Assembly (NCBI GenBank): GCA_963807065.1
Contig: CAWDZQ010000004.1
Coordinates: 1,415,017 to 1,479,016 of the forward strand
DNA: 64,000 nucleotides
Reading direction: 5' to 3'
DNA from: an uncultured Chloroflexia bacterium
GTDB lineage: Bacteria > Chloroflexota > Anaerolineae > Anaerolineales > E44-bin32
The position numbers and the translations under genes are program-made. The notes beneath the pieces are model-generated. The model searched no databases and was not told the DNA's origin. It saw only the letters and a list, made by a program, of their open reading frames with translations. This document shows, in pieces, positions 1-17,805 of this stretch; the stretch's first letter is position 1; every line of letters begins with the position of its first letter.

Positions 1-106
1 TGGTGCCCGACGCCAAAGGGAAGCTGCCAGCATGCGTGACCCGGGGGCTGTTGTGGAGGAAACGATCACTTGCTAAATTGGGGCTTGACAGCAGCGCCTA
101 CATAGA
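1..106 (+). mobile_element. Right end of IS110/IS1111-type family A element (copy A1, truncated by window edge)
   Basis: 1-106 is nearly identical to 3711-3816 and 16788-16893 and ends ...TTGACAGCAGCGCCTACATAGA followed by AG-GCGGAG (cassette start). Confidence 0.9.
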
Positions 107-202
107 AGGCGGAGCCGCCGAGGCCGGTAGCTTCGAGCGTCCACGGGCCAGGTATCCTATGCTAGACACCCTCGCAACATCATCTTGTTTCGGAGGATTT
201 GC

Positions 203-689
203 ATGAGCAAGGGAACATCGAAGAAGGACCCGTCCAAAGCCAAGCCGGTGACATTCCGTGCCACGAATTCTGCGCACAGGCAAGAACACAGCAGGAATCG
301 AAGTCCCAGGCGACGTGCTCGACCGTCTCGGGGGAGGCAAGCGTCCTCTTATATGGGTGACGGTGAAGCATCACACCTACCGTAGCGCAATCGGTGCCAT
401 GGATGGAAGGCCGATGATCCCCCTGAGTGCAGCAAACCGGAAATCTGCCGGGGTAGAAGGCGGAGAGAAGTTCGAGATAACCATCAGCCTTGACCTTAAG
501 CCACGCACGGTGACCCCCCCGAAGGATTTGAGGGCCGCGCTTGTCGAGGCGGGGGCGCTTGGAGCATTCGAGAAGTTGGCGCCTTCGATGCAGAAGGAGT
601 ACGTTCGGCAAGTGGTAGAAGCCAAGGCTGTCGAAACCCGCCAGAGAAGGAAAGCAAAGATCGTCGGAAGACTGACCGAAGGCGGTTAG
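203..689 (+). CDS. Cassette 1: YdeI/OmpD-associated (DUF1905 + OmdA-like) protein, one frameshift near 265
   Basis: ATG at 203 after GGAGG. MSKG...VTFRAT joins ILRTGKNTAGIEVP...YRSAIGAMDGRPMIPLSAANRK...FEKLAPSMQKEYVRQVVEAKAVETRQRR, typical of this family. Confidence 0.75.
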
Positions 690-779
690 GGGAGTTCGGA
701 TCCGGCACATTGCGTCCCTCGCCAAGGGGGATCTAGCCCTGCCGGGCGAGCCTCGTCTCCGCCTAACATCTATGAAAGC

Positions 780-1000
780 ACGTCCCCTGTCAATAGCCTC
801 TGTCGTTAAATGAATTTCTTCTCCCCGGTCGGGGAGTTTTCTTTCGTCTGTTGACCTCCAGCGTTTCAAAGCCCAGCCGGTCTCGCCGGAAACATCTATC
901 CCGTAGGACACCGGGACGGTGTTCGCCCTCAATGGGGCATGAGTACGTTCGCCGGGGGCGGCCCAATCATCTCGCGGATCTCAAAGGATCCATGTTAGGT
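780..1000 (-). ncRNA. Putative bridge/seek RNA of IS family B (3' non-coding end)
   Basis: Minus-strand RNA reads CCTAACAT-hairpin-GCGAGATG, matching both halves of target CCTAACATCTCGC. ATAGATG (893-899) is complementary to the donor junction CA-TCTAT. Conserved in all four copies. Transcript boundaries are approximate. Confidence 0.75.
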
Positions 1001-2097
1001 CCGGACCTGCCCCTGGCTGAGCGAGACAGGGGATTTCAACCCTGCAGGGAGCCAATTGGGCGGCTCCCGGTAGGGCTCACCCTTCTTGAGAACCCAGTAG
1101 GTGGCTTCCGCCAAGTAGCGAGCGGTGGCACCCACTGCAACGGCGTGGCCCTTTCGGCGGCGTGTCCGTTCGAAGAGGTGCACGACGTACTTCTTGCGCC
1201 AGTTGGGGTGATGGCGCTGATGGACGATGACGTTGGCGGCTTCGATGAAAGCCCATTTCAGGTAGGTGTTGCACTGTTTGACCATTCGTCCATAGTGCGC
1301 CTTGCCGGCACTTGAGCTGAGCTTGGGAACCAAACCGCAGTAACTGGCGAAGTGTTTGGGGGAGGGGAAACGGTCGATCGAGCCGACTTCCCTGTCGATG
1401 ACGATGGCCAGCACCTTGGCGGGGCCCGGGACGGTCTGAACGAGCTGGATGGTGGGTGTGGTCTGGATGCGTTGGACAATGCGATCTTCCAACTGTTTGA
1501 TATGTACGTTGAGAGCATCCAGGAGCTGAAGCTGCTGGCGAGTGCAGCGGGCGGTCTCGGCCGGCATCTCAACCAGCAGGGCTTCAAGATCCGCCCGCCA
1601 CTTGGCGCTGAAGATGTCACTGGCGGTGTCGAGCGAGAGGGCGAACTTGGCCAGGGTGGAAGAGATGCGGTTCTTGACCCGGGTCCGGTGGCCGGCGAAG
1701 GTCATCCGGGTGCGGGGCAGCTCCCTCTCATCGCGAGGCTGGCAGGAGGGATCCACACAGAGGGGAGCTTGCCCAGGTAGAGCAGGGTGGCCAGGCCCTT
1801 GGCGTCGAGCTTGTCGGTCTTGTGGATGTTGCCCATCATGACCTTGGCCTTGGCGGCGTGGGCCAAGAGGGGAAAGCAGCCGGCGTCTTCGATTTCGTTG
1901 ACGATCCAGTACCAGTTCCCGATCGTTTCGAGGGCGACCGGCGTGCCCTCTGGGAACTGGGATAGGAAGGCTGAAATCGTGCCTGGTGAATGGCCAACCC
2001 TCCTTTGCTGGATGAGCGATCCCGCTTCATCCAGGACGGCAAAGATGGAGAAATGTTTGTGAGCATCGCAGCCGACCGTATAATCGAAGTGAACCAT
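995..2097 (-). CDS. IS110-family recombinase (family B), frameshift near 1740
   Basis: DEDD motifs GCDAHK, ETIG, KTDKLDA, plus C-terminal FASYCGLVP-SSAGK. Split between ORFs 1702..2133 and 995..1756. Confidence 0.9.
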
Positions 2098-2368
2098 GCT
2101 GCACCTCCTGTGGGCGGACAGGGACTTCGACACTCCCAGTCTAGCGGGAGGTGCAGTGCTTTCATCTAATCATCTCGCTGGATCGGACCGGGGATGCGGG
2201 GCGAGTTTGGTGTGTTTGTTGTATGCTCAGGGAGGCTCGGGGGCGGGGCGGATGCGTGGCCCCGGCCGATCAGCTCGAAGGCGTTAGATGCTATGGGGGG
2301 ATGAAGATACGGGTCGCTGCTGATAAGCTCCTTGAAACTCTCAGATCAAGAGAAAGGAGCGCAACATC

Positions 2369-3514
2369 ATGGCAGCGGCCCGCAGTCACGAGTATAGCGT
2401 ATTGGAACAAGTACTGTATCTGGCCTTCGAACTGAGCAACACAAAGTGGAAACTGGGGTTCACGACGGGGCCAGGGCGGCGGCCCCGCGAGCGGAGCATC
2501 ACCGCCGGGGATCTGGAAGCTCTCCAGGAGGAGATCGGGCGAGCGAAGAAGCGGTTCGATCTGCCTGAGAGCAGTCGAGTGGTGAGCTGCTACGAGGCGG
2601 GACGGGATAGTTTTTGGCTTCATCGATATCTGGAGCAGCAAGGGATCGAGAACCTGGTGGTGGACAGCTCGAGCATTCAGGTGAACCGACGGGCCCGACA
2701 GGCCAAGACTGACCGGATGGACTTGGAGAAACTTCTGGGGCAGCTGATCCGGTACCGGGGAGGGGACCGGGAGGTGTGGAGCGTGGTGCGGGTGCCGAGC
2801 GTGGAGGCGGAGGACAACCGGCAGTTACACCGGGAACTGGAAACCCTGAAGAAGGATCGGACGCGGCACATCAACCGGATCAAGTCGTTCCTGGTGGGGC
2901 AGGGCATCCGGCTGAAGGTGGGGAGTGATTTCCTGGAAGAGATTGAACGGGTGCGCAAATGGGATGGCTCAGCGCTCCCGGCCAGTTTGAAAACCCGGCT
3001 TCAGCGAGAGTATCAGCGGCTTCAGCTGCTGCAGGCCCAGGTCAAGGAGCTGGAGCAGGCGCGGGTGGAGGCGATCCGGCATGGGGAAGACGAGAGTGTG
3101 GAGGTGGTGCGCAAGCTGCTGCGGCTGAACGGGATCGGGCAGAACGCCGGCTGGCTGTTCGGGATGGAGTTCTTCAGTTGGCGGAAGTTCAACAATAGGA
3201 AGGAAGTGGGGGCCCTGGCCGGTCTGGTGCCGATGCCGAGGCAGAGTGGCGACAGCTACCGGGAGCAGGGGATCAGCAAAGCCGGCAACCGGCACGTTCG
3301 GGGGATGGCGATCGAGATAGCATGGGGGTGGCTGCGGTTTCAGCCAGAGAGTGAGCTGACGAAGTGGTATGAGGAGAGATTTGGCCATGGGAGCAAACGG
3401 ATCCGGAAGATCGGGATCGTGGCGCTGGCCAGGAAGCTGCTGATTGAGCTATGGCGCTATTTGGAGACGGGGGCCATTCCTGAGGGGGCGGTGCTGAAGA
3501 CACGGTTGATCTGA
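2369..3514 (+). CDS. IS110-family recombinase (family A), 381 aa
   Basis: Motifs AFELS, YEAG, KTDRMD, GLVPMPRQSG, GISKAGN, IVALARKLL. Confidence 0.95.
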   Translation: MAAARSHEYSVLEQVLYLAFELSNTKWKLGFTTGPGRRPRERSITAGDLEALQEEIGRAKKRFDLPESSRVVSCYEAGRDSFWLHRYLEQQGIENLVVDSSSIQVNRRARQAKTDRMDLEKLLGQLIRYRGGDREVWSVVRVPSVEAEDNRQLHRELETLKKDRTRHINRIKSFLVGQGIRLKVGSDFLEEIERVRKWDGSALPASLKTRLQREYQRLQLLQAQVKELEQARVEAIRHGEDESVEVVRKLLRLNGIGQNAGWLFGMEFFSWRKFNNRKEVGALAGLVPMPRQSGDSYREQGISKAGNRHVRGMAIEIAWGWLRFQPESELTKWYEERFGHGSKRIRKIGIVALARKLLIELWRYLETGAIPEGAVLKTRLI

Positions 3515-3554
3515 AAGGGACGGAAAAGGAGAGAACAGGCAAGCAGGACAACAA

Positions 3555-3790
3555 GGCTGGTGTGAGCAGCTCGTTACTCCGCCGGGTCCGAAGGGACCGA
3601 GCGTTAGATGGGGCGCTCACCAGAGCTTCCAGGATCGCCGACGAGCGAACAAAGCATTGGGTGACCGGCCAAAGACGAGCCGGCACGGATAGAAGGTAGT
3701 TCGAGGCACTTGGTGCCCGACGCCAAAGGGAAGCTGCCAGCATGAGTGACCCGGGGGCTGTTGTGGAGGAAACGATCACTTGCTAAATTG
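3555..3790 (+). ncRNA. Putative bridge/seek RNA of IS family A
   Basis: Stem GTGAGC/GCTCAC closes the loop CTCCGCC-(GGTCC GAAG GGACC)-GAGCGTTAG, matching target CTCCGC-CT-AACGC. A second loop AGCAT...ATAGAAG matches the circle junction. Boundaries are approximate. Confidence 0.75.
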
Positions 3791-3888
3791 GGGCTTGACA
3801 GCAGCGCCTACATAGAAGGCGGCTGTCAGTGGTATCCATGAAATCTAGAGATGGCCGCGGATATCTCTATTCGAAAGGTGAGCCAAAC

Positions 3889-4539
3889 ATGACAAAACTA
3901 CGCGTGGACTTCTTTACAATTTCCCTGGACGGTTATGGCGCCGGCCCTAATCAGAGTTTCGATAACCCGCTCGGCGTCGGCGGGGAATCCTTGCACGATT
4001 GGTTCGTCGTAACGCGCTCCTTTCACCAAATGGCTGGGCAAGATGAAGGCGAGACCGGTATTGACAACGATTTCGCGGAGCGTGGCACAAAGAATCTCGG
4101 CGCATTCATTATGGGACGCAACATGTTTGGGCCGCCGCAAGGCGGGGACTGGGTCGATGGCACGTGGAAGGGTTGGTGGGGTGATAACCCGCCCTATCAC
4201 GGGCCTGTGTTCGTGCTCACCCACTATCCGCGTGCGTCAGTCACGATGGAGGGAGGCACTACATACCATTTCGTGACCGATGGCATTCATGCTGCGCTCA
4301 AACTGGCCACCGACGCGGCGAACGGCAAAGATATTCGACTAGCCGGAGGCGTGGCGACAATCCGGCAATACCTTAAGGCAAAGCTGATTGACCAGATGCA
4401 CATTCCAATCTCGCCAATTGTGCTTGGCACGGGTGAATCGCTGTTCTCCGGCATTGACATGGTCAAGCTCGGTTACGTCGTCACTGAACACGTCCCGACT
4501 GCAAGGGCAACACATATTGTTCTGGCGAAACATGAATAG
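3889..4539 (+). CDS. Cassette 2: dihydrofolate reductase family (RibD C-terminal domain) protein
   Basis: Motifs ISLDGYGAGP, GAFIMGRNMF, PVFVLTH, GGVATIRQYL, PIVLGTG. Start ATG follows AAAGGTGAG. Confidence 0.9.
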   Translation: MTKLRVDFFTISLDGYGAGPNQSFDNPLGVGGESLHDWFVVTRSFHQMAGQDEGETGIDNDFAERGTKNLGAFIMGRNMFGPPQGGDWVDGTWKGWWGDNPPYHGPVFVLTHYPRASVTMEGGTTYHFVTDGIHAALKLATDAANGKDIRLAGGVATIRQYLKAKLIDQMHIPISPIVLGTGESLFSGIDMVKLGYVVTEHVPTARATHIVLAKHE

Positions 4540-4568
4540 ACCGAGGCCCTGTTTCCCTCACCCTTCCC

Positions 4569-5916
4569 TGAACGAGCCGGGGACATAGGTAACAGAATCT
4601 TCTAAGGACATCGGTAACACAGATTCTAAGGACATAGGTAACACTTTCTCGAGAGAGGAGGTGGAGCCGATGCCCTGGGAAGGTGTTACCGTGAGCGAGC
4701 AGAAGCAGCGATTCATCGAAGACCACCTGCTGAACTACTACTCCGTGACGGAGCTGGCTGAACGGTTCAGCATCTCCAGAAAGACAGCGCATAAGTGGAT
4801 CAACCGGTACCGGGAGCGGGGCCTGGCAGGGCTTGAGGAGCTGTCGCGCCGGCCGGAGAGCTGCCCATGGCAGACGCCGGGCGCCATCGTCAGCGAGGTG
4901 GTGAATCTGCGGAAGGCGCATCCTCGCTGGGGGCCGAAGAAGCTCCTGGCGTTGATGGGGCGGCGCGATCCACAGCGACGCCTGCCGGCGGCATCGACGG
5001 TGGCCAAGATCCTGTCGGAAGCGGGGCTAGCAAAGCCCAGGCGGCGGCACCGGCGAGCCCATCCCGGCTGTCCGAAGACCCGGCCTGCAGGGCCGAACGA
5101 CATCTGGGCGGCGGACTACAAGGGGCAGTTCAGGCTGAAGAACGGGAAGTACTGCTTCCCGCTGACGGTGAGCGACCTGGCGAGCCGGTATCTGCTGGGG
5201 TGCGATGCGCATCCGGCGATCTCGCTGGAGCGCAGCCAGGCACATTTCAGGCGTCTTTTCGAGATCTACGGGCTGCCGAACCGGATCCGGACCGACAACG
5301 GGGTGCCGTTCGCCTCCAACGCCCTGGCCAGGCTGTCCCAGCTCTCAGTGTGGTTCATTCGGCTCGGGATCTACCCGGAGCTCATTGAGCCTGGGAAGCC
5401 CCAGCAAAACGGTGTGCACGAGCGAATGCACAAGACGTTGAAAGAGGAGGCAACGATCCCACCAGCCAGCAGCTTCAAGGGCCAACAGAAAAAGCTGGAT
5501 GCCTTCCTTCAGGAGTTCAACCAGGTGCGTCCACATGAAGCGCTGGGGATGAAGAGCCCGTCGGAGGTGTACCGCCCATCCAGCCGTCCCATGCCCCAGA
5601 AGATCGAGACCTACGAGTACCCTGGGCACTACCTGGTGCGGAGGGTGAGCCGGTCAGGGACGATCCGGGTGCTGAGGAAGCAGATCTTTGTGAGCAACAC
5701 GCTGCAGGAGGACTTTGTGGGACTGGAGGAGGTGGGAGACGGCGTGTTTGATGTGTACTTCTGCTTCTACCAGATTGGGCGCTATGATTTGCGGGAGGGG
5801 CGAATGCAGGATATTGTGTCGAAGGTGGGCGTGAGCCGAAAGCAGGTCGATCGGCCGGAGCGAGTGTAACCGATGTCCGTAGAACAAAGTGTTACCCATG
5901 TCCTCGGACAGTACCC
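4569..5916 (+). mobile_element. IS481-family element inserted between cassette-2 gene and its attC
   Basis: Three GGACAT(A/C)GGTAACA repeats at the left end (4581, 4607, 4630) and two inverted copies at the right end (5866, 5890), flanking a DDE transposase. Exact termini are approximate. Confidence 0.85.
4661..5869 (+). CDS. IS481-family transposase (HTH + rve integrase core)
   Basis: MPWEG start, HTH FSISRKTAHKW, catalytic WAADYKG, RTDNG, QNGVHERMHKTLK. Confidence 0.92.
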   Translation: MEPMPWEGVTVSEQKQRFIEDHLLNYYSVTELAERFSISRKTAHKWINRYRERGLAGLEELSRRPESCPWQTPGAIVSEVVNLRKAHPRWGPKKLLALMGRRDPQRRLPAASTVAKILSEAGLAKPRRRHRRAHPGCPKTRPAGPNDIWAADYKGQFRLKNGKYCFPLTVSDLASRYLLGCDAHPAISLERSQAHFRRLFEIYGLPNRIRTDNGVPFASNALARLSQLSVWFIRLGIYPELIEPGKPQQNGVHERMHKTLKEEATIPPASSFKGQQKKLDAFLQEFNQVRPHEALGMKSPSEVYRPSSRPMPQKIETYEYPGHYLVRRVSRSGTIRVLRKQIFVSNTLQEDFVGLEEVGDGVFDVYFCFYQIGRYDLREGRMQDIVSKVGVSRKQVDRPERV

Positions 5917-5923
5917 CCACGCC

Positions 5924-6024
5924 GCCCAACAACTCGATGGAGCCGACCCGGCCAGCCGAGCGGTAGCCATTTGTGCGATACTAGTCTTCGGCTGGCCGGG
6001 CGGCTCATCTCGAGGCCGTTAGGG
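5924..6024 (+). repeat. attC2 (101 bp, uninterrupted)
   Basis: GCCCAAC...GTTAGGG with long imperfect palindrome TCGATGGAGCCGACCCGGCCAGCCGA / TCGGCTGGCCGGGCGGCTCATCTCGA. Confidence 0.88.
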
Positions 6025-6047
6025 GGCATTCAGAATAAGGGGCATTC

Positions 6048-6762
6048 ATGGACCAGCCAGCCTCGCCAGGCAGAGAATCAGTGGACCTTCAGAATGCCAC
6101 TTCAGAACTCCGGCAAGAAATCGATCAGGCGGAGCATCTAGCAGGCAATCTCAAGGGAGGGCCGCCAGATAAGACGCGCGAGCAAATCAGTCGCCTACTG
6201 TCTGCGACACGCCCTCCAGCTGGGCAAAGCATCTCTTCTGTGCGCAAATGCGGAACTGCCAGATGCGCTCATTTTGCTTTCCCGGGCGATCTTGGAGACC
6301 CTGTTCTGGGCAAGATATGTCAGCCTATCCGATGAGAACTCCAAGCGATTTGAAGAATTGGCGCTTGAGGATCTGAAGCGTATCTCCCGCAGGAATCTCC
6401 AAGCAGGTTTTGCTCGCATCGTGGATAGCGAAACCAAAGAGGACAAGACAGACGAGTTCCTCGAATCGGATCCAATGAGGTCTGTTCGACCTCGGATGCG
6501 CGTCGAAGAGGTCGCGAATGCTATTGGCTTTGGCCGCTTGTACTCTATGATGTACCTGTTCGACTCGATCTACGCTCACGGAACCTCTTCTGGCCTGCAG
6601 ACAGACTCGAATGTCCACGCACAGCTCTACACATCCGTCTGTGCCGGACTCGGATACATCCACTGCATCAACCTCATTTCATCGGACTGGCTTGGAAGTC
6701 GGAGGCTAACCACTGCTCCCACACTGTCTAGGGTCCTTGGAATTCCCCTCGATGCCCCCTAA
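6048..6762 (+). CDS. Cassette 3: DUF5677-like helical protein, frameshift near 6200
   Basis: LSRAILE-x-LFWARYV and LYSMMYLFDSIYAHG motifs. The stop TAA lies within the attC R'' box. Confidence 0.6.
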
Positions 6763-6764
6763 CA

Positions 6765-8212
6765 TCCATGAAAGCACGGCCCCTGTCAATACCCTCTGGC
6801 GTTAAATGAAGTTCTTCTCCCCCTAGGGGAGTGTTCATCCTTCAGTTGCCCTCCAGCGTTTCAAAGCCCAGCCGGTCTCGCCGGAAACATCCATCCCGTA
6901 GGACACCGGGACGGTGTGCGCCTCTCGATCGAGGCAAGAGTAAGTTCGCCAGGAGTGGCCCAATCATCTCACGGGTCTCAAAGGACCCATACCGCCAACA
7001 ACGCGGCACTTTGTTAGGCGCGGACCTTCTCCTGGCTGAGCGAGACAAGGTGCTTCATCCCTTCGGGGGCCCAGTGAGGGGGCTCCCGATAGGGCTCACT
7101 CTTTTTGAGAACCCAATAGGTGGCCTCCGCCAGGTAGCGAGCGGTGGCGCCGACGGCGACGGCATGGCCCTTGCGGTGTTTGGTGCGTTCATAGAGGTGG
7201 ACGACGTACTTGCGACGCCAGTTGGGATGGTGGCGGTGGCGGACGACAACGTTGGCAGCTTCGATAAAAGCCCACTTGAGGTAGTTGTTGGCTTGTTTCC
7301 CGAAGGACACCGGGACGGTGTGACCATGCGGCCGTAGTGGACGCGCCCTCCGCTGGCGCTGACTTTGGGGACCAGGCCGCAGTAGCTGGCGAAGTGCTTG
7401 GGGGCGCAGAAGCGGTCGATAGTGCCGATCTCAAGAGTGATGACGGTGGCCAGGATGGCACCCACACCAGGGAGGGTTTGGACGAGCTGCATGCTGTGGG
7501 TGAGCTTGATCCGCTGCTTGATTCTCGCTTCCAGTTGGTTGATGTGATCCTGGACCAGCTCGAGCAGTTCGAGCTCCTGGTGCATGCAGCGACCGGTCTC
7601 CTCGGGCAGTGTGTCGATGAGCTTGAGCAGCGGAGGCCGCCATTTGGGGGTGAAGATATCGCTGGTGGTGTCCAGGGAAAGAGCATACTTGGCCAGGGTG
7701 GAATGAATGCGATTCTTGAGACTAGCCCTGGACTTGGAGAAAGCCATACGGGTGCGGGGCAGTTCACGGGCGTCGCGGACGTCGTTGGGTGGGATCCAGA
7801 CCGATGGTAGCTTGCCCAGGTAGAGCAGGGTGGCTAGGCCCTGGGCGTCGAGCTTGTCGGTCTTGTGAACGTTGCCCATCATGACTTTGGCTTTGGCAGC
7901 GTGAGCCAGAAGCGGGATGCAGCCGGCGTCTTCGATCTCGTCGACGATCCAATACCAGTTGCCGACGGTCTCAAGTGCCACCGGGGTCCCTTGGGGGAAC
8001 TGCTCCAGAAACATGCGAATCGCTCCAGGCACGTGGCCGACCCGGGTGCGCTGGACCAGGTCCCCGTTGTGGTCCAGGACTGCAAAGAGCGAGAAATGCT
8101 TGTGAGCATCAATGCCGACCGTATAATCTGAGTGGAACATGCTGCACCTCCTTTGCGGAACGGTGGCTTCGACACTACCAGTCTAGCGGGAGGTGCAGTG
8201 CTTTCATACAAT
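6765..8212 (-). mobile_element. IS1111-type family B copy B2
   Basis: Same IRs and CA core as B1, with ends TCC-ATG and CAT-ACAAT. Confidence 0.92.
7014..8140 (-). pseudogene. IS110 recombinase B2, frameshifted by a 23-nt insertion at 7299-7321
   Basis: HYGRMV|insert|KQANNYLKWAFIEAA. The same insert is in B3, so it is not a read error. Confidence 0.88.
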
Positions 8213-8376
8213 CATCTCGCTGGATCGGACCGGGGATGCTGGGCGAATTTGGTGTGATTGTTGTATGCTCAGGATGGCTCGGGGGCAAGGAGGAGAATGA
8301 CCCCGGCCGATCCCCTTCGGCTGCGCTCAGGATGCTTCGCGAAGCTCGAGGGCGTTAGGCAGATCCAAAGGTAGGT

Positions 8377-9288
8377 ATGGACTACGATCTTTACCATGAT
8401 GAGTCGAAACTCGATGGGTACTGGCATGGAATGCTTCTTGTGCCCAAACCGAAGCGGCAATGGATGCTCGACCGACTTGCCGACGCGAGAGCCAATGCTC
8501 GCTACTCGGAGCCCTTGGGAATAAAGCGAGTACGGAAAGAGAACCGCGTCTTTGATTGCGCGAAATCTTGGCTCACCGTTGCGATCGCCTCGATGCGGAG
8601 CACGGCAGGCGGAGAGCCTGTGCCCATCTATCTCGGCAAGTCAAAGAGGGGTGTTCCTCAGTACCGACTTGTCGAGGAGGCTCCGGGCGCCAAATTCATC
8701 CTCTTCAGGGAAAGCGATGCGCACCAGGAAATGACCAGCCACCCTGACCATGCGAGCAAAATCGAAACTACATTCAGAATTGGGCTCAAGGGTGGACTGC
8801 ACTTCCTCGGCTCCGAGCAGAAGTCAATATGGATCGATAGCTTGCACTTCGACGGCCACGAGCATCTGAAGCGGAATGTCGACGCCTCACGGATCATAGG
8901 CCGATTGGAAGGCCTCAGGAGCTACTGCCACATTCCCGACAAGTCAGACATTCTTCACGACGGCTCAAGTGACCACCGCAGGCCCGACGCGCAATCCTAC
9001 GATGATTGCCAGTTCTTGCAGTTGACGGACTTGCTTGTTGGATCCTTCCGGACAGTGCTTCTCGGGGCCACAAACGATCTTCATCTCCGAGTGGCCTATC
9101 CTGTCGAGTCGCTTGTTCTCCGATATCAAGAAGGCTACGCCAGGATGAAGAACAGTCGATGGTGGAGTTCCTTCTGCATGAGCCAATGCCACCTTGAAGA
9201 TGATCACTGGGTTTTCGAAACCATGGAGTACGAGCCCTACTACGGTGCAGCCCAAATCGCGCTTCCACTGCAAACGGGATCTGCCTAA
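8377..9288 (+). CDS. Cassette 4: DUF3800-like (RNase H-fold) protein
   Basis: N-terminal LYHDES, central FDG and C-terminal LQLTDLLVG motifs. Stop lies in R'' GCCTAAC. Confidence 0.65.
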   Translation: MDYDLYHDESKLDGYWHGMLLVPKPKRQWMLDRLADARANARYSEPLGIKRVRKENRVFDCAKSWLTVAIASMRSTAGGEPVPIYLGKSKRGVPQYRLVEEAPGAKFILFRESDAHQEMTSHPDHASKIETTFRIGLKGGLHFLGSEQKSIWIDSLHFDGHEHLKRNVDASRIIGRLEGLRSYCHIPDKSDILHDGSSDHRRPDAQSYDDCQFLQLTDLLVGSFRTVLLGATNDLHLRVAYPVESLVLRYQEGYARMKNSRWWSSFCMSQCHLEDDHWVFETMEYEPYYGAAQIALPLQTGSA

Positions 9289-9290
9289 CA

Positions 9291-10737
9291 TCCATGAAAG
9301 CACGGCCCCTGTCAATACCCTCTGGCGTTAAAGAAGTTCTTCTCCCCGCAGGGAAGTGTTCATCCTTCAGTTGCCCTCCAGCGTTTCAAAGCCCAGCCGG
9401 TCTCGCCGGAAACATCCATCCCGTAGGACACCGGGACGGTGTGCGCCTCTAGATCGAGGCAAGAGTAAGTTCGCCAGGGGTGGCCCAATCATCTCGCGGG
9501 TCTCAAGGGACCCATACCGCCAACAACGCGGCACTTTGTTAGGCGCGGACCTTCCCTTGGCTGAGCGAGATAGGGTGCTTCATCCCTTCGGGGGCCCAGT
9601 GAGGGGGCTCCCGATAGGGCTCACTCTTTTTGAGAACCCAATAGGTGGCCTCCGCCAGGTAGCGAGCGGTGGCGCCGACGGCGACGGCATGGCCCTTGCG
9701 GTGTTTGGTGCGTTCATAGAGGTGGACGACGTACTTGCGACGCCAGTTGGGATGGTGGCGGTGGCGGACGACAACGTTGGCAGCTTCGATAAAAGCCCAC
9801 TTGAGGTAGTTGTTGGCCTGTTTCCCGAAGGACACCGGGACGGTGTGACCATGCGGCCGTAGTGGACGTGCCCACCGCTAGCGCTGACTTTGGGGACCAG
9901 GCCGCAGTAGCTGGCGAAGTGCTTGGGAGCGCTGAAGCGGTCGATAGAGCCGACTTCGAGACAGGTGACGATGGCCAGGATGGCGCCCACGCCGGGGAGG
10001 GATTGGACGCGCTGCATGCTGTCGGAGAGCTTGATCCGCTGCTTGATCCTGGCTTCTAGCTGGCCAATGTGATCCTGGACCAGCTCTAGCAGTTCGAGTT
10101 CCTGGTGCATGCAGCGGCCGGTCTCTTCCGGCAGCGTGTCGATGAGCTTGAGCAGCGGAGGCCGCCATTTGGGGGTGAAGATATCGCTGGTGGTGTCCAG
10201 GGAAAGAGCATACTTGGCCAGGGTGGAATGAATGCGATTCTTGAGACTAGCCCTGGACTTGGAGAAAGCCATACGGGTGCGGGGCAGTTCACGGGCGTCG
10301 CGGACGTCGTTGGGTGGGATCCAGACCGATGGTAGCTTGCCCAGGTAGAGCAGGGTGGCTAGGCCCTGGGCGTCGAGCTTGTCGGTCTTGTGAACGTTGC
10401 CCATCATGACTTTGGCTTTGGCAGCGTGAGCCAGAAGCGGGATGCAGCCGGCGTCTTCGATCTCGTCGACGATCCAATACCAGTTGCCGACGGTCTCAAG
10501 TGCCACCGGGGTCCCTTGGGGGAACTGCTCCAGAAACATGCGAATCGCTCCAGGCACGTGGCCGACCCGGGTGCGCTGGACCAGGTCCCCGTTGTGGTCC
10601 AGGACTGCAAAGAGCGAGAAATGCTTGTGAGCATCAATGCCGACCGTATAATCTGAGTGGAACATGCTGCACCTCCTTTGCGGAACGGTGGCTTCGACAC
10701 TACCAGTCTAGCGGGAGGTGCAGTGCTTTCATACAAT
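9291..10737 (-). mobile_element. IS1111-type family B copy B3
   Basis: Near-identical to B2, with the same junctions. Confidence 0.92.
9539..10665 (-). pseudogene. IS110 recombinase B3, frameshifted by a 23-nt insertion at 9824-9846
   Basis: Same lesion as B2. Confidence 0.88.
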
Positions 10738-10879
10738 CATCTCGCTGGATCGGACCGGGGATGCGGTGGCATTTTGGCCTGGATGGTGTATTCTCAGAAT
10801 CGGCTACGGGGCTTGAGGGTTCGTGGCCCCGGCCGATCAGCTCGAGGGCGTTAGATCGCCTTGAAGTGGCAGGAGCAAG

Positions 10880-11499
10880 ATGGGGATTCAAGAGATTCAG
10901 CAGTACGTTACTTTGATCAAAGATGTACTAACCGCTTTGGCGGCGGTGAGCGCCGCCTGCATCGGCTTTTTAGGCCTCGCCACCTGGAGAAAGCAGCTCA
11001 GGGGAAGACAGAATATGAGCTGGCAAGGCGCGTGCTTGTAGCGGTTTACAGGCTCAGGAATGCCGTGTCGTACTTCCGAAATCCTTTCATGACCCCCGGT
11101 GAAATCTCCAACTCCATGGAACGCGAAGGAATGAAAGCGGAACCTGCCGACAGGGAATATCGCTTCAGGTCCACATCCGCGGTCTACAAAGTGAGATGGG
11201 AGAAGATTTCGGACGCCTCCACTGACTTGGAAATCAATGCGATTGAGGCAGAGGTTCTCTGGGGGCGGGGAATCCAGGAAACCTTGATAGAAGTGTCGCG
11301 TTTGATTTCCGATCTAAATTTCAACGTGGGATGGTACCTCAGGGAGCTTGCCGGATACGGCAGTGGAAAACCAGACGATATCGAGCGGCTGGAAAAGTGC
11401 GTATTCTCGATGGGTCCGGAAAACGATGAGTTCGCGAAGAAGTTGTCGGCTGCTGTCGAAGCGGTAGAGGACTTTCTCAAGCCGTTTCTAAGAATCTAA
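10880..11499 (+). CDS. Cassette 5: hypothetical protein with N-terminal TM helix, frameshift near 11000
   Basis: ATG after AGGAG. MGIQEIQQYVTLIKDVLTALAAVSAACIGFLGLATWRKQL joins GKTEYELARRVLVAVYRLR of ORF 10861..11499. Confidence 0.7.
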
Positions 11500-11513
11500 T
11501 CGGCGATCTAACA

Positions 11514-12894
11514 TCTATGAAAGCACGTCCCCTGTCAATAGCCTCTGCCGTTAAATGAACATCTTCTCTCTGGTTGGAGAGTGTTTTTCTTCTTGAGTTG
11601 ACCTCCAGCGCTTCAAAGCTAAGCCGGTCTCGCCGGAAACATCTATTCGCCCTCAATGGGGCATGAGTATGTTCGCCAGGGGCGGCCCAATCATCTCGCG
11701 GATCTCAGTGGACCCATGTTAGCCGCGGACCTTCCCCTGGCTGAGCGAGACAGGGGACTTCATCCCTCCGGGAGCCCAGTGAGGAGGCTCCTGGTAGGGC
11801 TCGCCCTTCTTGAGAACCCAGTAAGTAGACTCGGCCAGATAGCGAGCGGTGGCGCCGACGGCGACAGCGTGGCCCTTTCGCCGGCGGTTGCGCTCGAAGA
11901 GGTGGACGACGTACTTCCTGCGCCAGTTGGCGTGGTGTCGGTGAGCCACGATGACGTTGGCGGCTTCGATGAAAGCCCATTTCAGGTAGGTGTTGGCCTG
12001 CTTAACCATCCGCCCGTAGTGGGCACGGCCGGCACTGGCACTGACTTTGGGCACCAGGCCGCAGTAGCTAGCGAAGTGGTTAGGAGCGCTGAAGCGGTCG
12101 ATGGAGCCGATCTCTCGATCGATGACGATGGCCAGCACTTTGGCCGGCCCGGGAACCGTTTGGACCAACTGGATTGTGGGTGTGGTTTGGATGCGCTCGA
12201 CGATCCGGTCTTCCAGCTGCTTGATGTGGCTGTTCAGAGCGTCGAGGAGCTGCAGCTGCTGGGATGTGCAGCGGGCGGTTTCGGCAGGCAGGTGCTGCAG
12301 CAGGTCTTCGAGATCGCTCCGCCGTCTGGAGGCGAAGATATCACTGGCGCCGTCCAGAGAAAGGGCGTACTTGGCCAGGGTGGAGGAGATTCGGTTCTTG
12401 ACCCGGGTGCGGTGGCCGGCGAAGGTCATCCGGGTGCGGGGCAGCTCACGCTCGTCACGGACCTCAGTCGGTGGGATCCAGACAGAGGGGAGTTTGCCCA
12501 GGTAGAGGAGAGTGGCCAGGCCGTGGGCATCGAGCTTGTCGGTCTTGTGGATGTTGCCCATCATGACCTTGGCCTTGGCGGCGTGAGCCAGGAGCGGGAT
12601 GCAGCCGGAAGCTTCGATCTCGTCCACGATCCAGTACCAATTGCCAACAGTCTCCAAGGCAACGGGTGTCGCATCTGGGAACTGGGAAAGAAAGTCTCCA
12701 ATGGCGCCCGGCACGTGGCCGACGCGGACCTGTTGGGCCAGCTGGCCCGCTTCATCCAGCACAGCGAAGAGTGAGAAATGCTTGTGGGCATCACAGCCGA
12801 TCGTATAATCTGAATGAACCATGCTGCACCTCCTTGGGTGGACAGGGAACCAGACACTCCCAGTCTAACGGGAGGTGCAGTGCTTTCATCTAAT
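11514..12894 (-). mobile_element. IS1111-type family B copy B4 (intact)
   Basis: Same IRs and core as B1, and no mini-insertions. Confidence 0.93.
11719..12822 (-). CDS. IS110-family recombinase (family B), intact 367 aa
   Basis: Full DEDD domain and C-terminal Tnp domain in one frame. Confidence 0.95.
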   Translation of the reverse strand: MVHSDYTIGCDAHKHFSLFAVLDEAGQLAQQVRVGHVPGAIGDFLSQFPDATPVALETVGNWYWIVDEIEASGCIPLLAHAAKAKVMMGNIHKTDKLDAHGLATLLYLGKLPSVWIPPTEVRDERELPRTRMTFAGHRTRVKNRISSTLAKYALSLDGASDIFASRRRSDLEDLLQHLPAETARCTSQQLQLLDALNSHIKQLEDRIVERIQTTPTIQLVQTVPGPAKVLAIVIDREIGSIDRFSAPNHFASYCGLVPKVSASAGRAHYGRMVKQANTYLKWAFIEAANVIVAHRHHANWRRKYVVHLFERNRRRKGHAVAVGATARYLAESTYWVLKKGEPYQEPPHWAPGGMKSPVSLSQGKVRG

Positions 12895-13086
12895 CATCTC
12901 GCTCGATGGGACCGGGGATGCGGGGCGATTTTGGAGCGAGCGTTGTGTTATCGGCATGGGCTTGGAGAAGAGATGTTGATCGACCCCGGCCCATCAGCTC
13001 GGACGCGTTAGGGAGCGCCACCAACTTCATCGGCCGCTCCTTTCCCTAAAGTCGGCCTGAACACAATAATGCACACCAGCATGGTT

Positions 13087-13114
13087 TTGTGCTTAGAACA
13101 TTTGTTGCTATAAT
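13087..13114 (+). promoter_or_regulatory. Sigma70-type promoter of the R-M cassette
   Basis: TTGTGC-16 nt-TATAAT with extended -10 TGn, upstream of RBS GAGGAGG. Confidence 0.6.
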
Positions 13115-13153
13115 CTCTCCCGAAATCATTCTGAGGAGGAGAAGTTTCAAACT

Positions 13154-14044
13154 GTGCCTGGGACACACACATCAAGCTTTGGCACCGGCAAGCGCGAGTC
13201 TCATGACTCAAGTGATTTTTACTCTCGCAGCATGCTTTCTTCCACGAGCCTCGCCCCACTCTCGCACACGGACCTAGGCGAAATCCAGGTTCCGTCAGTC
13301 GGTTCATGGGCTGACAATATTTACTGCTCCTCTGCCACAGACATGAAAGAGGTCCCAGACAACTCTGTAGCGCTCTCGTTCACGTCACCCCCATACAATG
13401 TGGGGAAAGACTACGACGACGACATCAATGTGTCAGAGTATCTCCAACTCATTGAGGATGTTGGCAGAGAGGTCTTTAGGGCTCTGCGTCCCGGAGGAAG
13501 ATACCTGATCAACATCGCCAATGTCGGCAGGAAGCCATACATTCCCCTCCACTCGCTCTTTTGGAATCTACATCTAGGCATCGGATTTCTTCCGATGGGA
13601 GAGATAATCTGGCAAAAGGCCAAGGGCGCCAACGGAAGCTGCGCATGGGGTAGTTGGATGAGCGCGAAAGCTCCAAGGCTGAGGGATGTACACGAGTACA
13701 TTCTTGTGTTGGCCAAGCATTCCTATTCCAGGCCCGACAAGGGTGTATCGGACGTCTCCCGAGAGGAGTTCATGGATTCAACACTCTCTGTTTGGCCAAT
13801 TCCACCGGAGTCAGCCAAGAGAGTGGGTCATCCGGCACCATTCCCCATCGCCTTGGCCTCAAGAGTCGTCAAACTCTACAGCTACGTCGATGACGTTGTG
13901 ATTGATCCATTCGCTGGCTCCGGGACGACTTGCGTAGCTGCCGCACAGTTGGGTCGCCACTTCGTGGGATACGACATTTCGCAAGAGTACTGCCAGCTGG
14001 CCGAAGAAAGGCTGCTTCTGGAGGGGCACAAGTCACTAGTTTAG
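13154..14044 (+). CDS. Cassette 6: beta-class N4/N6 DNA methyltransferase
   Basis: Motif IV TSPPY precedes HPAPFP and motif I DPFAGSGT. Confidence 0.92.
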
Positions 14045-14058
14045 GCACACAATTAGCC

Positions 14059-15108
14059 ATGCCCACTCCACGGACCGAAGCATCCGAGTTAGCCGTCGCC
14101 TTTGGAATTCTCTCTCTGAATCCTTCTGAACCACTCTCAGACCAAGAGAGGGAGTATCACTTTCAGTCGACCCTTCCCCTTGCAAGCTATGTATCGTTCG
14201 TGAGTGAGTATTCGAATAATGTGGATCTCCACAGCAGGATGTACAGTGTTGGAAGACGGCTCCGTTCTTCCTTCTCAGAGTTCCAAAGAGTTCGACTCTT
14301 CTCAGATGGGCTGGACCTAACCAACAAGCATCCACTATTTCTGCGGCGTCCGATCTTCTGGTTTCCAACACGCCGGTAAGCGTAAAAGCTATTAGCGACG
14401 TAGTGGCCAATCCGTCCCCCTACAATCTGATCTACAATCTCCCCAGCGGGCAGGCGTTTTCTCAGAACGAACAGAACTGGTACTTGGAACAAGCACCTGC
14501 CGAATTCCAAGATGTGTATGGATTCGTTCGCAATTCAGATTCGAGATTGGCGTATCTTCCATCGCAAGTTGCCGACTTTGAGGCCGGTGCGTCACGACAA
14601 GACCGCAAACTCGTCCAGTTGGCCATAAGCGAATATGAACAGGGTTCCAAGGATGCGTTCATCCGCTTCTACCTAGACATGTGTCACGCCGTTGCGAATT
14701 CATCTGCGCACGAGTTCAACTCGAGGATGTCTGCGTCCCTAGGAGGAAGATCAAGGACGGCGATTGTCGAAAACGTCATGCGCTGGTTCTTTCGGCCTCG
14801 ATGCAGTTCCTTATGTCCTGTGCGGCATCAATTCCAATGACGAGTTTGGGTTGCAGATACCTTCACTGACGGACTTCAAATTCAAATGGGAGCTCACGAC
14901 TATTCACGCGTTGGCTGATTTGAATCGCCGCCAGAGCGTCGTAGGATTCAGGCTGGAATTCAATTCCAAGTCTGGACATCTAAGGCATGTCGCGAACTTC
15001 CACACAGAATTGCGTTGGTCTCATGGCAGATTCTGTGGGGTTCCCGAGGCAAAGCTCTACAAGGACTTCCACTACTACGAACTGCCCTTCTTCCAGCGTC
15101 TAATCTAG
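14059..15108 (+). CDS. Cassette 6: putative type II restriction endonuclease (several frameshifts)
   Basis: Follows the MTase directly. Fragments 13930..14379, 14403..14840 and 14764..15108 join, and an alternative frame reads SDLLVSNTPVSVK (PD-x-K-like). Confidence 0.6.
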
Positions 15109-15120
15109 CCTCTAGGGGCT

Positions 15121-15294
15121 CTCTAACATCTCGCTGGATCCCTGGAGGAACACCAGGATCTTCGACGGACCGGGGATGCCGGGCGAGTTTGGCGTGATTG
15201 TTGTATGCTCAGGATGGCCCAGGGGTTAGGCGGTGACTGGCCCCGGCCGATCCCCACAAAGAACGCGGGACTTCGCAGTTCGAGGGCGTTAGAT
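15121..15294 (+). repeat. attC6, carrying two mini-insertions and IS A3 at R'
   Basis: CTCTAACATCTCGCTGGAT...CGGACCGGGG...CCCCGGCCGAT...GCGTTAG. Confidence 0.85.
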
Positions 15295-16893
15295 GCTATG
15301 GGGGATGAAGATGCGGGTCGCTGCTGATAAGCTCCTTGAAACTCTCGGATCAAGAGAAAGGAGCGCAACATCATGGCAGCGGCCCGCAGTCACGAGTATA
15401 GCGTATTCGAATCGGTGCTGTATCTGGCCTTCGAACTGAGCAACACAAAGTGGAAACTGGGGTTCACGACAGGGCCGAGTCGCCGGCCACACGAGCGGAG
15501 CATCACCGCCGGGGATCTGGAAGCTCTCCAGGAGGAGATCGGGCGAGCGAAGAAGCGGTTCGATCTGCCTGAGAGCAGCCGGGTGGTGAGCTGTTACGAG
15601 GCGGGCAGAGACGCCTTCTGGTTGCACAGGTACCTGGAACAGCAGGGGATCGAGAACCTGGTGGTGGACAGCTCTAGCATCCAGGTGAACCGACGGGCCC
15701 GACAGGCCACACCTGCCCTGGCGGGCGGTGCCAGGGAGACTGACCGGATGGACTTGGAGAAACTTCTGGGGCAGCTGATCCGGTACCGGGGAGGGGACCG
15801 GGAGGTGTGGAGCGTGGTGCGGGTGCCGAGCGTGGAGGCGGAGGACAACCGGCAGTTACACCGGGAACTGGAAACCCTGAAGAAGGATCGGACGCGGCAC
15901 ATCAACCGGATCAAGTCGTTCCTGGTGGGGCAGGGCATCCGGATGAAGGTGGGGAGTGATTTCTTGGAAGAGATCGAACGGGTGCGCAAATGGGATGGCT
16001 CAGCGCTCCCGGCCAGCCTGAAAGCCCGGCTTCAGCGAGAGTATCAGCGGCTTCAACTGCTGCAGGAGCAGGTCAAGGAGCTGGAGCGGGCGCGGGTGGA
16101 GGCGATCCGGCATGGGGAAGACGAGAGTGTGGAGGTGGTGCGCAAGCTGATGCGGCTGAACGGGATCGGGCAGAACGCCGGCTGGCTGTTCGGGATGGAG
16201 TTTTTCAGCTGGCGGAAGTTCCCTGGCCTGCGCCTAGGGCAGGCAACAATAGGAAGGAAGTGGGGGCCCTGGCCGGTCTGGTGCCGATGCCGAGGCAGAG
16301 TGGCGACAGCTACCGGGAGCAGGGGATCAGCAAAGCCGGCAACCGGCACGTTCGGGGGATGGCGATCGAGATCGCATGGGGGTGGCTGCAGTTTCAGCCG
16401 GAGAGTGAACTGACCAAGTGGTATGAGGAACGATTTGGCCATGGGAGCAAACGGATCCGGAAGATCGGGATCGTGGCGCTGGCCAGGAAGCTGATGATTG
16501 AGCTATGGCGCTATCTGGAGACGGGAGCTATCCCTGAAGGGGCGGTGCTGAAGGCACGGTTGATTTGAGAGAGATCCAAAGAGGAAAGGACGGGCGAAAA
16601 GGGACAACCAGGCTGGTGCCCTGGTGCCCAGGATGGGTATGAGCAGCTCGTTACTCCGCCGGGTCCGAAGGGACCGAGCGTTAGATGGGGCGCTCAGCAG
16701 AGCTTCCAGGATCGCCGACGAGCGAACAAAGCATTGGGTGACCGGCCAAACAAGAGCCGGCACGGATAGAAGGTAGTTCGAGGCACTTGGTGCCCGACGC
16801 CAAAGGGAAGCTGCCAGCATGAGTGACCCGGGGGCTGTTGTGGAGGAAACGATCACTTGCTAAATTGGGGCTTGACAGCAGCGCCTACATAGA
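15293..16893 (+). mobile_element. IS1111-type family A copy A3
   Basis: Same ends and AG core as A2. Confidence 0.92.
15373..16568 (+). pseudogene. IS110 recombinase A3 with a 27-nt in-frame and a 23-nt frameshifting insertion
   Basis: Versus A2: insert 15710-15736 (KT becomes TPALAGGARET) and insert 16221-16243. Confidence 0.88.
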
Positions 16894-16913
16894 AGGCAGA
16901 CTGATTTCTTCAG

Positions 16914-17687
16914 ATGAAGAAGCACCATGAACTAGTCGCAAGGTTACTGTTCGAAGACTGGCTTGCTGAGCAGTTGCCTGGCGCTAACATCAAATGGACT
17001 GAGTCAGAAGACCCCCATCCGGATTGGTATCTGTCAATCAACTCTGACGAATACTGGGTTGAGGCAACCACAATAGTTCCAATTGTTCGACATGGAAGGA
17101 ACCTGATCCTTGAGCCATCTCTCTCTGCCTCAATCCACGACTTTGTTGACAGGATCGAAAGCCAAGCCAAGGCTGCAGGCATACTTCATGGCGGCTATGT
17201 ACTTGCGTGTGGCCCAATGCCGAGACGAGGTGGGTTCCGTGACAAGATCGCAGCGGCTGCAATTCAGTACATCGACGACACCAGCCAGCTGGACAGGGCT
17301 CAGCCTCTGGTGTTGGATGACTCTGGCGAATATCGCATTGAAATTCAGAAGTTGAGCAATTTTCGAGACTATCTCGTGGAAATGGTTGATTTGTCTTTCG
17401 TGTCAGAAGCACAGACCAACCAAGACTTCGCAGCTCAGCTTCACCAAATGATCAGTAGGAAAGCAAGGAAATATGCCCATCACACTGTCCCTACGGTGCT
17501 GCTGTTGCTGGACGGCTTCCATATCGTGGACGAAGACACTTGGCTCGCGGCCGCGAAGGAAGTTGATGAGTTAGAGAAATTCGAGGCAGTCTTTCGCATC
17601 AAGCCTGCGAATTCTCCTCTCCTCCTGTTCTCACAGTCCAATCTATGGCCACCGGCCCAGCTTCCACCGGCTTGGCCGTCAATCTAA
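16914..17687 (+). CDS. Cassette 7: hypothetical protein, PD-(D/E)xK-like
   Basis: EDPHPDWYL...YWVEATT motif. Stop lies in R'' ATCTAAC. Confidence 0.65.
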   Translation: MKKHHELVARLLFEDWLAEQLPGANIKWTESEDPHPDWYLSINSDEYWVEATTIVPIVRHGRNLILEPSLSASIHDFVDRIESQAKAAGILHGGYVLACGPMPRRGGFRDKIAAAAIQYIDDTSQLDRAQPLVLDDSGEYRIEIQKLSNFRDYLVEMVDLSFVSEAQTNQDFAAQLHQMISRKARKYAHHTVPTVLLLLDGFHIVDEDTWLAAAKEVDELEKFEAVFRIKPANSPLLLFSQSNLWPPAQLPPAWPSI

Positions 17688-17805
17688 CAAATCGCTGGAT
17701 CGGACCGGGGATGCAGGGCGAGTTTGGCGTGATTGTTGTATGCTCAGGATGGTCCGGGGGCAGGATGGTGCGTTGCCCCGGCCGATCAGCTCGGATGCGT
17801 TGGGC
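17682..17805 (+). repeat. attC7 (124 bp, uninterrupted, last of the array)
   Basis: ATCTAAC-AAA-TCGCTGGATCGGACCGGGG...CCCCGGCCGATCAGCTCGGA-TGC-GTTGGGC. Confidence 0.9.

Follow-up and report, generated by a model that had tools for sequence, protein, structure and literature searches.

What does the interval at positions 880-1000 (minus strand) of this DNA encode, where the end of a recombinase gene runs into non-coding sequence: an RNA that guides the recombinase to its target and to the ends of its own element, or only relics of those sites? The window, which is the whole stretch of 64,000 nucleotides analysed here, carries four copies (B1 to B4) of an element designated family B, and the first-pass annotation had read the interval in B1 as part of a bridge RNA. 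This reading was borne out by compensatory changes in a conserved fold, by guides that covary with flanks and ends, and by a strand order like that of IS1111 elements. The interval is very probably the core of a bridge/seek RNA that belongs to an insertion sequence of the IS1111 group, with the 5' end of attC sites as its target. The coordinates given earlier for the 7-mers and ends of B1 to B4, for the target loop and for the target were all correct when read back in the sequence. The identity of the target as attC, the TG core and a 23-nt hairpin in the donor loop of B1, B2 and B3 had gone unnoticed.

Family B is an IS1111-group insertion sequence with a DEDD recombinase on the minus strand, 10-bp subterminal inverted repeats and a core TG. 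Four copies were found in the first 13 kb of the window, all on the minus strand, and 11 in the whole genome (four contigs, 3.85 Mb), with B4 as the only one of the 11 free of insertions. The boundaries of B1 were taken from an alignment of the 11 genome copies with their flanks and the empty site. The B4 protein matched the Pfam domains PF01548 (DEDD_Tnp_IS110, 8.2e-12) and PF02371 (Transposase_20, 6.6e-19), and its C-terminal domain was homologous to the IS621 transposase 8wt6 (E = 3.2e-10). In sense orientation, all 11 copies read ...GCGAGA-TG-ATTAG-ATGAAAGCAC ... gene ... GTGCTTTCAT-AGA-TG-TTAGG..., and all were inserted between ...GCGAGA and TTAG or TTAA in one orientation, with one shared TG and no target duplication. 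With the core TG assigned to the left end, 7 nt separate this end from its subterminal repeat and 3 nt separate the right end from the other; IS1111 elements have a 3-bp extension at the right end. The non-coding ends of B4 comprise 74 nt before the start codon (left) and 205 nt after the stop codon (right). Thus the domains, the subterminal repeats within the range of 7-17 bp given for the IS1111 group in the available text of PMC11208160, the long downstream non-coding region and the site- and orientation-specific insertion of the group were all present. The available texts of PMC11208160 and PMC11187229 likewise give a short left and a long right end with subterminal repeats as the IS1111 layout, and the latter adds a 7-bp extension at the left end.

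Many copies of family B are degenerate and recombine, with insertions patchily distributed among them, and a perfect palindrome of 17 nt (GGTAATCACTGATTACC), flanked by repeated ATGAT, was seen inside the recombinase gene of four copies. As for the core, a 5-nt version, AGATG, was considered and rejected: relatives with switched targets have only TG in common, and the core was therefore taken to be TG. One relative (L007, G008:C78) has the right junction CATAGA-GG-TTAGG and keeps TG at the left junction, and GG is also what its 5' target guide (CCUAACCU) matches. Such naturally unequal cores could reveal the side of the core on which each strand is cut.

The target of family B was identified as the 5' end of integron attC sites. 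Each copy splits an attC unit of about 125 nt that starts with GCCTAAC (RYYYAAC), ends with GTTAGAT or GTTAGGC (GTTRRRY) and has imperfectly paired arms, and the element lies near the 5' end of this unit, antisense to the cassettes. The uninterrupted sequence CTAACATCTCGC occurs once in the window, at 15123. Genome-wide, 54 attC-like units were found in five clusters, each of a single orientation and with a spacing of 0.6-2.5 kb. The small ORFs between the units lie on the plus strand, and an integron integrase (TIGR02249, 461 bits against a cut-off of 265) directly adjoins the cluster on contig 2. Cassette arrays cover about 760-17800 of the window, C2:887-24215, C1:238-262 kb and 408-412 kb, and C3:2-7 kb; integrase genes were intact at C2:23274-24215 and broken at C1:264939-265661, none was found near the array of the window, and several arrays extend to contig ends. 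A second IS1111-like element, family A (381-aa recombinase, plus strand), lies directly after the attC core GTTAGAT, so that each end of the same attC sites has its own IS1111-type family. The downstream region of family A (~300 nt) holds GAGCGTTAGATGGGG, which matches its own left junction, and a TTGACA lies near its end, which reads CCTACATAGA. Colonisation of a chromosomal integron array at both attC ends should block cassette recombination at the occupied sites.

Relatives were searched with the B4 protein as query. Matches were found in 11 of 61 related genomes, at 79 loci of species-representative genomes (mostly MAGs labelled Chloroflexota, Anaerolineae, Thermoleophilia, Rokubacteria and others) and at 80 metagenome loci, and the landmarks downstream of the gene were kept at 58-85% protein identity. 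No plasmid-borne relative above 34% identity was present among 72,556 plasmids. Forty-five relative sequences without large insertions, 41 of them distinct, were aligned (alignment A1) and folded with RNAalifold, which gave the five helices P1a, P1b, P2, P3 and P4 (Table 1); the final codons of the gene contain the 5' strands of P1a and P1b. The conserved RNA begins in the last ~40 nt of the recombinase gene with P1, followed by an internal loop that holds P2, then by a strand, P3, a second strand and P4. In the first loop, the 5' strand (G)CCUAACAU and the 3' strand GCGAGAUGAUU stand on either side of P2; downstream of P1 come the strand GUACUCAU, hairpin P3, the strand AUAGAUGUU and hairpin P4.

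Over the 41 distinct rows, 98.0% of the cells formed standard pairs compared with 86.4% after shuffling, and 12 of the 23 pairs were altered on both sides, including seven of the ten in P1. The covariation score was 0.334 as against 0.115 for shuffled alignments, with none of 500 shuffles as high and slid controls at no more than 0.064, and pairing fell to 24-43% when the partner was slid by 1-3 columns. Single-sequence folds of B4 and B1 reproduced P1, the loop, P2 and P3 (z ~ -1.9). No conserved closing stem for the donor loop was found by RNAalifold on the 45 sequences or in the single fold of B4. A candidate donor-loop stem past the terminator hairpin, GAACAU/AUGUUC, was seen in B4 alone, appeared unconserved in the relatives by eye and was dropped. 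An Rfam search of positions 1-14000 (E up to 1) returned chance-level hits only and no bridge RNA family.

Table 1 Positions of the family B elements, the parts of their RNA and neighbouring features; window coordinates unless another contig is named.
Feature	Position	Strand	Remarks
Copy B1	769..2172	-	frameshifted recombinase gene; right end 769 (sense ...CATAGA), left end 2172 (sense TGATTAG...)
Copy B2	6765..8214	-	end GGA; guide AUGGAUG at 6888-6894 (+); insertions present
Copy B3	9291..10739	-	near-twin of B2; guide at 9413-9419 (+); carries insertions
Copy B4	11514..12896	-	sole intact copy; 367-aa recombinase 11719-12822
B4 RNA parts	11689-11723; 11663-11670 and 11638-11646		target loop; donor-loop strands; without hairpin insertions
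Right subterminal inverted repeat	772..781	.	plus strand ATGAAAGCAC; partner GTGCTTTCAT at 2156-2165; conserved in relatives
TTGACA, -35 half of junction promoter	788..793	-	promoter complete only once the element ends join; columns invariant in A1
GC-rich hairpin downstream of RNA	821..836	.	likely transcript end; read directly for B1
Hairpin P4	877..889	-	CCGG-CGAGA-CCGG; helix 5, 100% paired, invariant
Donor loop 3' strand (D3)	891..899	-	RNA AUAGA-UG-UU = sense right junction (element end, core, 2 nt of target)
23-nt hairpin hpA	900..922	-	sense ACACCGUCCCGGUGUCCUACGGG; between P3 and donor guide; absent from B4
hpA, further copies in window	6895-6917, 7305-7327, 9420-9442, 9830-9852
Hairpin P3 between donor-loop strands	925..938	-	helix 4, 98.2% paired, 3/4 pairs changed on both sides
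Donor loop 5' strand	939..946	-	RNA GUACUCAU; proposed partner = joined ends A-TG-ATTAG; 6/8 pair, C opposite T at position 5
P1 3' strand	952..964	-	from RNAalifold, pair counts and single-sequence fold
Target loop 3' strand (T3)	965..975	-	RNA GCGAGA-UG-AUU = sense left junction (left target half, core, 3 nt of element)
Hairpin P2 in target loop	976..991	-	GGAUC / GAUCC; helix 3, 99.5% of cells paired, 2 pairs changed on both sides
Target loop 5' strand (T5)	992..999	-	RNA CCUAACAU, complementary to sense right junction A-TG-TTAGG; holds stop UAA (995-997)
P1 5' strand	1001..1016	-	within recombinase CDS; helices 1 and 2 pair with 952-964
Remainder of attC split by B1	2173..2289	+	ends in core GTTAGAT (2283-2289)
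Unoccupied attC	15121..15294	+	R'' CTCTAAC to R' GTTAGAT; insertion point would lie between CTAACA and TCTCGC (15123-15134)
Family A	2290-3822, 15295-16900; third copy ends at 112	+	
22-nt hairpin (AAAGTGCCGCGTTGTTGGCGGT)	6990-7011, 9515-9536		six other genome copies
17-nt palindrome	C1:238458, 251601, 259467; C2:11228		genome

Each half of the target has its counterpart in one strand of the first loop. In B1, positions 968-999 read CCTAACAT-GGATCC-TTTGA-GATCC-GCGAGATG on the minus strand, and the same arrangement was found in B4. The pattern CTAACAT-N14-18-GCGAGATG occurred twice in the window (B1 and B4) and in none of 100 dinucleotide-preserving shuffles; B2 and B3 fall outside this pattern because a 22-nt hairpin splits their 5' strand. 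Among the relatives, 51 distinct loci had both junctions, and each strand was compared with its own junction and with 2000 shuffled assignments. At these loci, which are related lineages whose shared ancestry is left uncorrected by the shuffles, T3 was identical to its own left junction at 10.41 of 11 positions (9.35 shuffled) and T5 was complementary to the right junction at 8.29 of 11 (7.70 shuffled), with no shuffle out of 2000 as high for either strand. Together with the conserved, covarying fold, these values upheld the earlier claim that the RNA matches both target halves.

The signal of this comparison stemmed from lineages with a switched target. At least eight distinct guide/target pairs were present among the relatives, such as GACGAAGC with GCTTCGTC, GACAAAGC with GCTTTGTC, CUUGAAGC with GCTTCAAG, CCCAACA with TGTTGGG, UUGAACA with TGTTCAA and CAUAACA with TGTTATG, and the left-side guides GGAGAU, UUGAC, GAACC and UUUUC matched their own flanks. 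Misses were also recorded: some CCCAACA guides stand at TGTTAGG sites, at one locus (L178) two strands carry a single mismatch each, and another (L183) deviates in the left guide. T3 runs past the core with AUU, the start of the element.

The TAA in the 5' guide had been taken for the stop codon of the recombinase gene, and this was correct for both copies: in B1, the minus-strand ORF 995..1756 has the TTA at 995-997 as its stop, and in B4 the stop at 11719-11721 closes the intact 367-aa ORF. Across the relatives, the stop fell on the guide TAA at 26 of 50 loci by an automatic anchor and at four more, with a displaced anchor, when counted by hand. Loci with the CCCAACA guide have lost this stop and read on to a later one, and at loci with other targets the stop lies 8-10 nt upstream; translation passes through the 5' strand of P1 at all 50. 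The 5' guide is a copy of the attC inverse core RYYYAAC (GCCTAAC) and therefore contains TAAC, which accounts for the stop codon in the guide, and the overlap is evidently a by-product of the target sequence. The cassette ORF 8377-9288 (plus strand) also ends on the TAA of an attC inverse core GCCTAAC (9283-9289), and it is a copy of this motif in the RNA guide that stops the recombinase ORF, which lies on the opposite strand. In the running text of the literature searched, an IS1111-type RNA whose closing stem and 5' guide fall within the coding sequence, with a stop codon inside the guide, was unmentioned.

Downstream of P1, the 3' strand of the donor loop followed the right junction closely. 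Over the same 51 distinct loci, D3 was identical to it at 8.84 of 9 positions compared with 8.60 after shuffling (0/2000 as high), and the 2 nt after the core in D3 tracked the target (TT with TT, CT with CT at five loci and TA with TA at two), with one miss. The 5' strand, which the first-pass annotation had called not clearly readable, is still the weakest part of the RNA, but the 8 nt 5' of P3 can now be assigned to it. Its complementarity to the joined ends amounted to 6.96 of 8 positions as against 6.89 shuffled, a weak signal with 96 of 2000 shuffles as high. In relatives that carry GUAAUCAU or AUGAUCAU, 7-8 of the 8 positions pair with A-TG-ATTxx, GUAAUCAU being complementary to the A-TG-ATTAC of joined ends, and C stands opposite T at position 5 in about half of the lineages, including every copy in this genome.

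The donor guide had also been proposed to change together with the end of the element. CATCTAT is found at 893 in B1 and at 11640 in B4, and both elements start with TCTATGAAAG after the core CA (769 and 11514); CATCCAT is found at 6888 in B2 and at 9413 in B3, and both of these start with TCCATGAAAG (6765 and 9291). The third base from the right end and the internal 7-mer, A in B1 and B4 and G in B2 and B3, were concordant in all 11 genome copies (six A, five G). This concordance holds, but as evidence of pairing from within the window it is weak, because one matched change at a single pre-named pair is expected by hitch-hiking about 7% of the time (an estimate of 0.2 x 1/3, the right ends of B4 and B2 being identical at 145 of 181 positions, so that ~20% differ); the weight comes from the relatives. 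A maximum-likelihood tree of 27 coding sequences grouped the seven G-bearing elements, namely two relatives and five copies of this genome including B2 and B3, as a single clade (support 100/100), and no further independent change at the third base was found in this 27-row tree. In the larger alignment that had been suggested, the correlation of end and guide was unbroken and no extra events appeared. The A/G change is a single event, in agreement with the earlier count of one independent substitution pair.

The sequence near the right end points to a way in which such an RNA could be expressed. When the element ends were joined in silico, TTGACA-17-GATGAT or a near variant was present in 81 of 83 elements, as against none of the 83 integrated forms, and a sigma-70 scan of integrated B4 gave no promoter-like sites. 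A junction promoter, with no promoter-like site scored in integrated B4, fits the published junction-promoter model, in which, according to the available text of PMC11187229, the RNA is cut from a long transcript. The B4 counterpart of the GC-rich hairpin (11566-11581) was terminator-like on the plus strand only. Two salt-marsh metatranscriptome contig sets contained small shares of this sequence; their RNA-library contigs on 11450-12950 covered parts of the CDS only, at a depth of 1-3, and are uninformative for the 3' region.

By analogy with ISEc11/ISKpn4 and IS621, the element would excise as a circle, and its joined ends would create the promoter TTGACA-17-GATGAT, from which the recombinase gene would be transcribed together with the RNA. 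The recombinase would bind this RNA. Loop 1 would engage both strands of the target, which in sense orientation reads GCGAGA-TG-TTAGG: CCUAACAU would pair to the right of the core with the top strand, and GCGAGAUG to the left of the core with the bottom strand. Loop 2 would pair likewise with the joined ends CATAGA-TG-ATTAG, and strand exchange would take place at the core TG. Each 3' strand extends 2-3 nt past the core into the sequence of the other partner.

Two further explanations were weighed against this two-loop RNA. The RNA might serve the choice of target only, as a 'seek' RNA, with the ends recognised by the protein through the subterminal repeats and AUAGAUG conserved for another reason, for example as RNA scaffold. 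The nearly unspecific 5' donor strand (96/2000 shuffles as high for 6.96 vs 6.89) would be at home in such a model, as would a donor sequence so nearly invariant that its covariation is thin and comes down to one A/G event, and end recognition may differ between families, as Siddiquee et al. state in the available text of PMC11187229. The 3' donor strand, however, fits the right end at 8.84 of 9 positions and follows the single end change in seven of seven G-clade elements, and its next 2 nt, which track the target (TT, CT, TA), are hard to explain unless this strand lies on junction DNA. Donor loops were moreover predicted in IS1111 elements by Durrant et al. (PMC11208160, text available in part), and we consider an RNA confined to target choice improbable.

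That there is no functional RNA at all, the internal copies of target and ends being DNA relics (for instance nested ends or a captured target) kept alike by gene conversion, is very hard to credit. Many copies are degenerate and recombining, their insertions are patchily shared, and the contigs from RNA libraries leave the 3' region uncovered, all of which relics could accommodate. Yet the stems beside the matches keep pairing through two-sided changes (12/23 pairs), the matches are to opposite strands in a fixed order, and guides switch with targets in at least eight pairs from unrelated samples. The same layout is also functional in ISEc11 and ISKpn4, as far as the available text of PMC11187229 goes.

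The bridge/seek RNA of family B is interrupted by small hairpins in most copies of this genome. The insertion hpA, a double hairpin with the sense sequence ACACCGTCCCGGTGTCCT[T/A]CGGG, lies between P3 and the donor guide in 10 of the 11 copies, including B1, B2 and B3; B2 carries it in both the donor loop and the coding sequence, in addition to the 22-nt hairpin in the 5' target strand. The 17-mer core of hpA had 31 matches in the genome, 27 of them within family B copies. These occupy four sites in family B, one in the donor loop and the others in the recombinase gene (three sites, one inverted), so that four independent sites fall in a 1.4-kb element as against four in the other 3.8 Mb. One hpA abuts the breakpoint of homology in a broken intI-like gene (C1:264914). 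Variants of hpA keep their stem by paired changes (ACATCG/CGATGT and ATATCG/CGATGT), the exact 17-mer was found in 10 of 41 related genomes in up to 24 copies, and two of seven sites examined in these genomes were intergenic according to Pfam matches on the flanking frames. hpA looks like a very small mobile or REP-like repeat. It is rather unlikely that it is a miniature mobile element that lands preferentially in family B and thereby disables copies; if true, it would be a parasite of a parasite or a means of silencing family B. One contig from the RNA libraries, with a loose end at 12003, runs from the recombinase gene into hpA, at the site in the coding sequence where B2 and B3 also carry it. 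hpA would stay in the transcript if this contig derives from RNA; DNA carry-over is possible.

The 22-nt hairpin lies within the 5' target-guide strand, between CCUAAC(A) and P2, in 8 of the 11 copies and nowhere else in the genome. Since 10 of the 11 copies are broken or have a hairpin in the donor loop, most of the RNAs here may be inactive. Hairpins of 18-21 nt were also seen in the 3' target strand of the relatives L033, L111, L114, L128, L164, L167 and L003, exactly between the left-target guide (GCGAG) and the core with its extension (UUGAUU), and at least L033, L111, L164 and L167 have full-length reading frames. Some hairpin insertions may be tolerated, because intact relatives carry small ones in the 3' target strand too, and their position suggests that the two parts of this strand may act as separate modules.

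An IS1111-attC group with ISPa21, ISPst6 and ISKpn4 as members has reportedly been described by Tetu and Holmes in 2008 and by Post and Hall in 2009. According to the available text of PMC3001079, these elements insert near the 5' end of attC, antisense to the cassettes, and family B resembles them in its attC target, position and orientation. For ISKpn4 and ISPst6, the seekRNA comes from the region downstream of the gene (PMC11187229, text available in part). The insertion point of family B, between CTAACA and TCTCGC, lies 5 nt nearer the inverse core than that of ISKpn4, between CTAACAATTCG and TTC, as obtained by reverse-complementing the target that Table 1 of PMC13604230 gives for ISKpn4. 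The hosts also differ, an uncultured Chloroflexota-type genome with chromosomal arrays compared with a proteobacterial plasmid integron. As judged from its target and insertion position, family B is IS1111-attC-like, with plasmid-borne relatives at most 34% identical.

With the seekRNA or predicted bridge RNA of ISEc11 and ISPa11 (Siddiquee 2024; Durrant 2024), family B shares an RNA encoded downstream of the recombinase gene, a circle-junction promoter, and subterminal repeats with a 7-nt extension at the left end. It also shares a match to the top strand that lies 5' of the match to the bottom strand, the two overlapping at the insertion point (available text of PMC11187229). Unlike in those elements, the closing stem and 5' guide of family B lie inside the CDS, with the stop codon in the guide in 30 of 50 relatives, and many copies have small hairpins inside the guide strands. 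The bridge RNA of IS621 (Durrant 2024; Hiraizumi 2024 and 2026) has two guide loops that each pair with both strands around a dinucleotide core, as is proposed for family B, and its handshake guides, whose core-adjacent nucleotides match the non-cognate partner (PMC11208158, text available in part), resemble those of family B. No description of handshake-type guides in IS1111-type elements was found, the literature search having given reference-list or IS621 contexts only. In contrast to IS621, family B encodes its RNA on the 3' side of the gene instead of the 5' side, has the opposite strand order and uses TG, not CT, as core; its donor strands have no enclosing stem of their own, and the protein is alignable over the C-terminal domain only.

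Family B is thus an ordinary, well-documented new case of the known IS1111 bridge/seek RNA class, specialised on attC, and leaves unchanged a mechanism that was first described in 2024 (available texts of PMC11187229 and PMC11208160). Its ~80 natural relatives offer a ready-made mutational series for an IS1111-type RNA, which indicates a core TG, target guides of ~8+8 nt, cross-matching extensions of 2-3 nt and sites where hairpins may be tolerated. With family B, the attC-targeting RNA-guided recombinases gain a lineage outside Proteobacteria whose insertion point is not that of ISKpn4.
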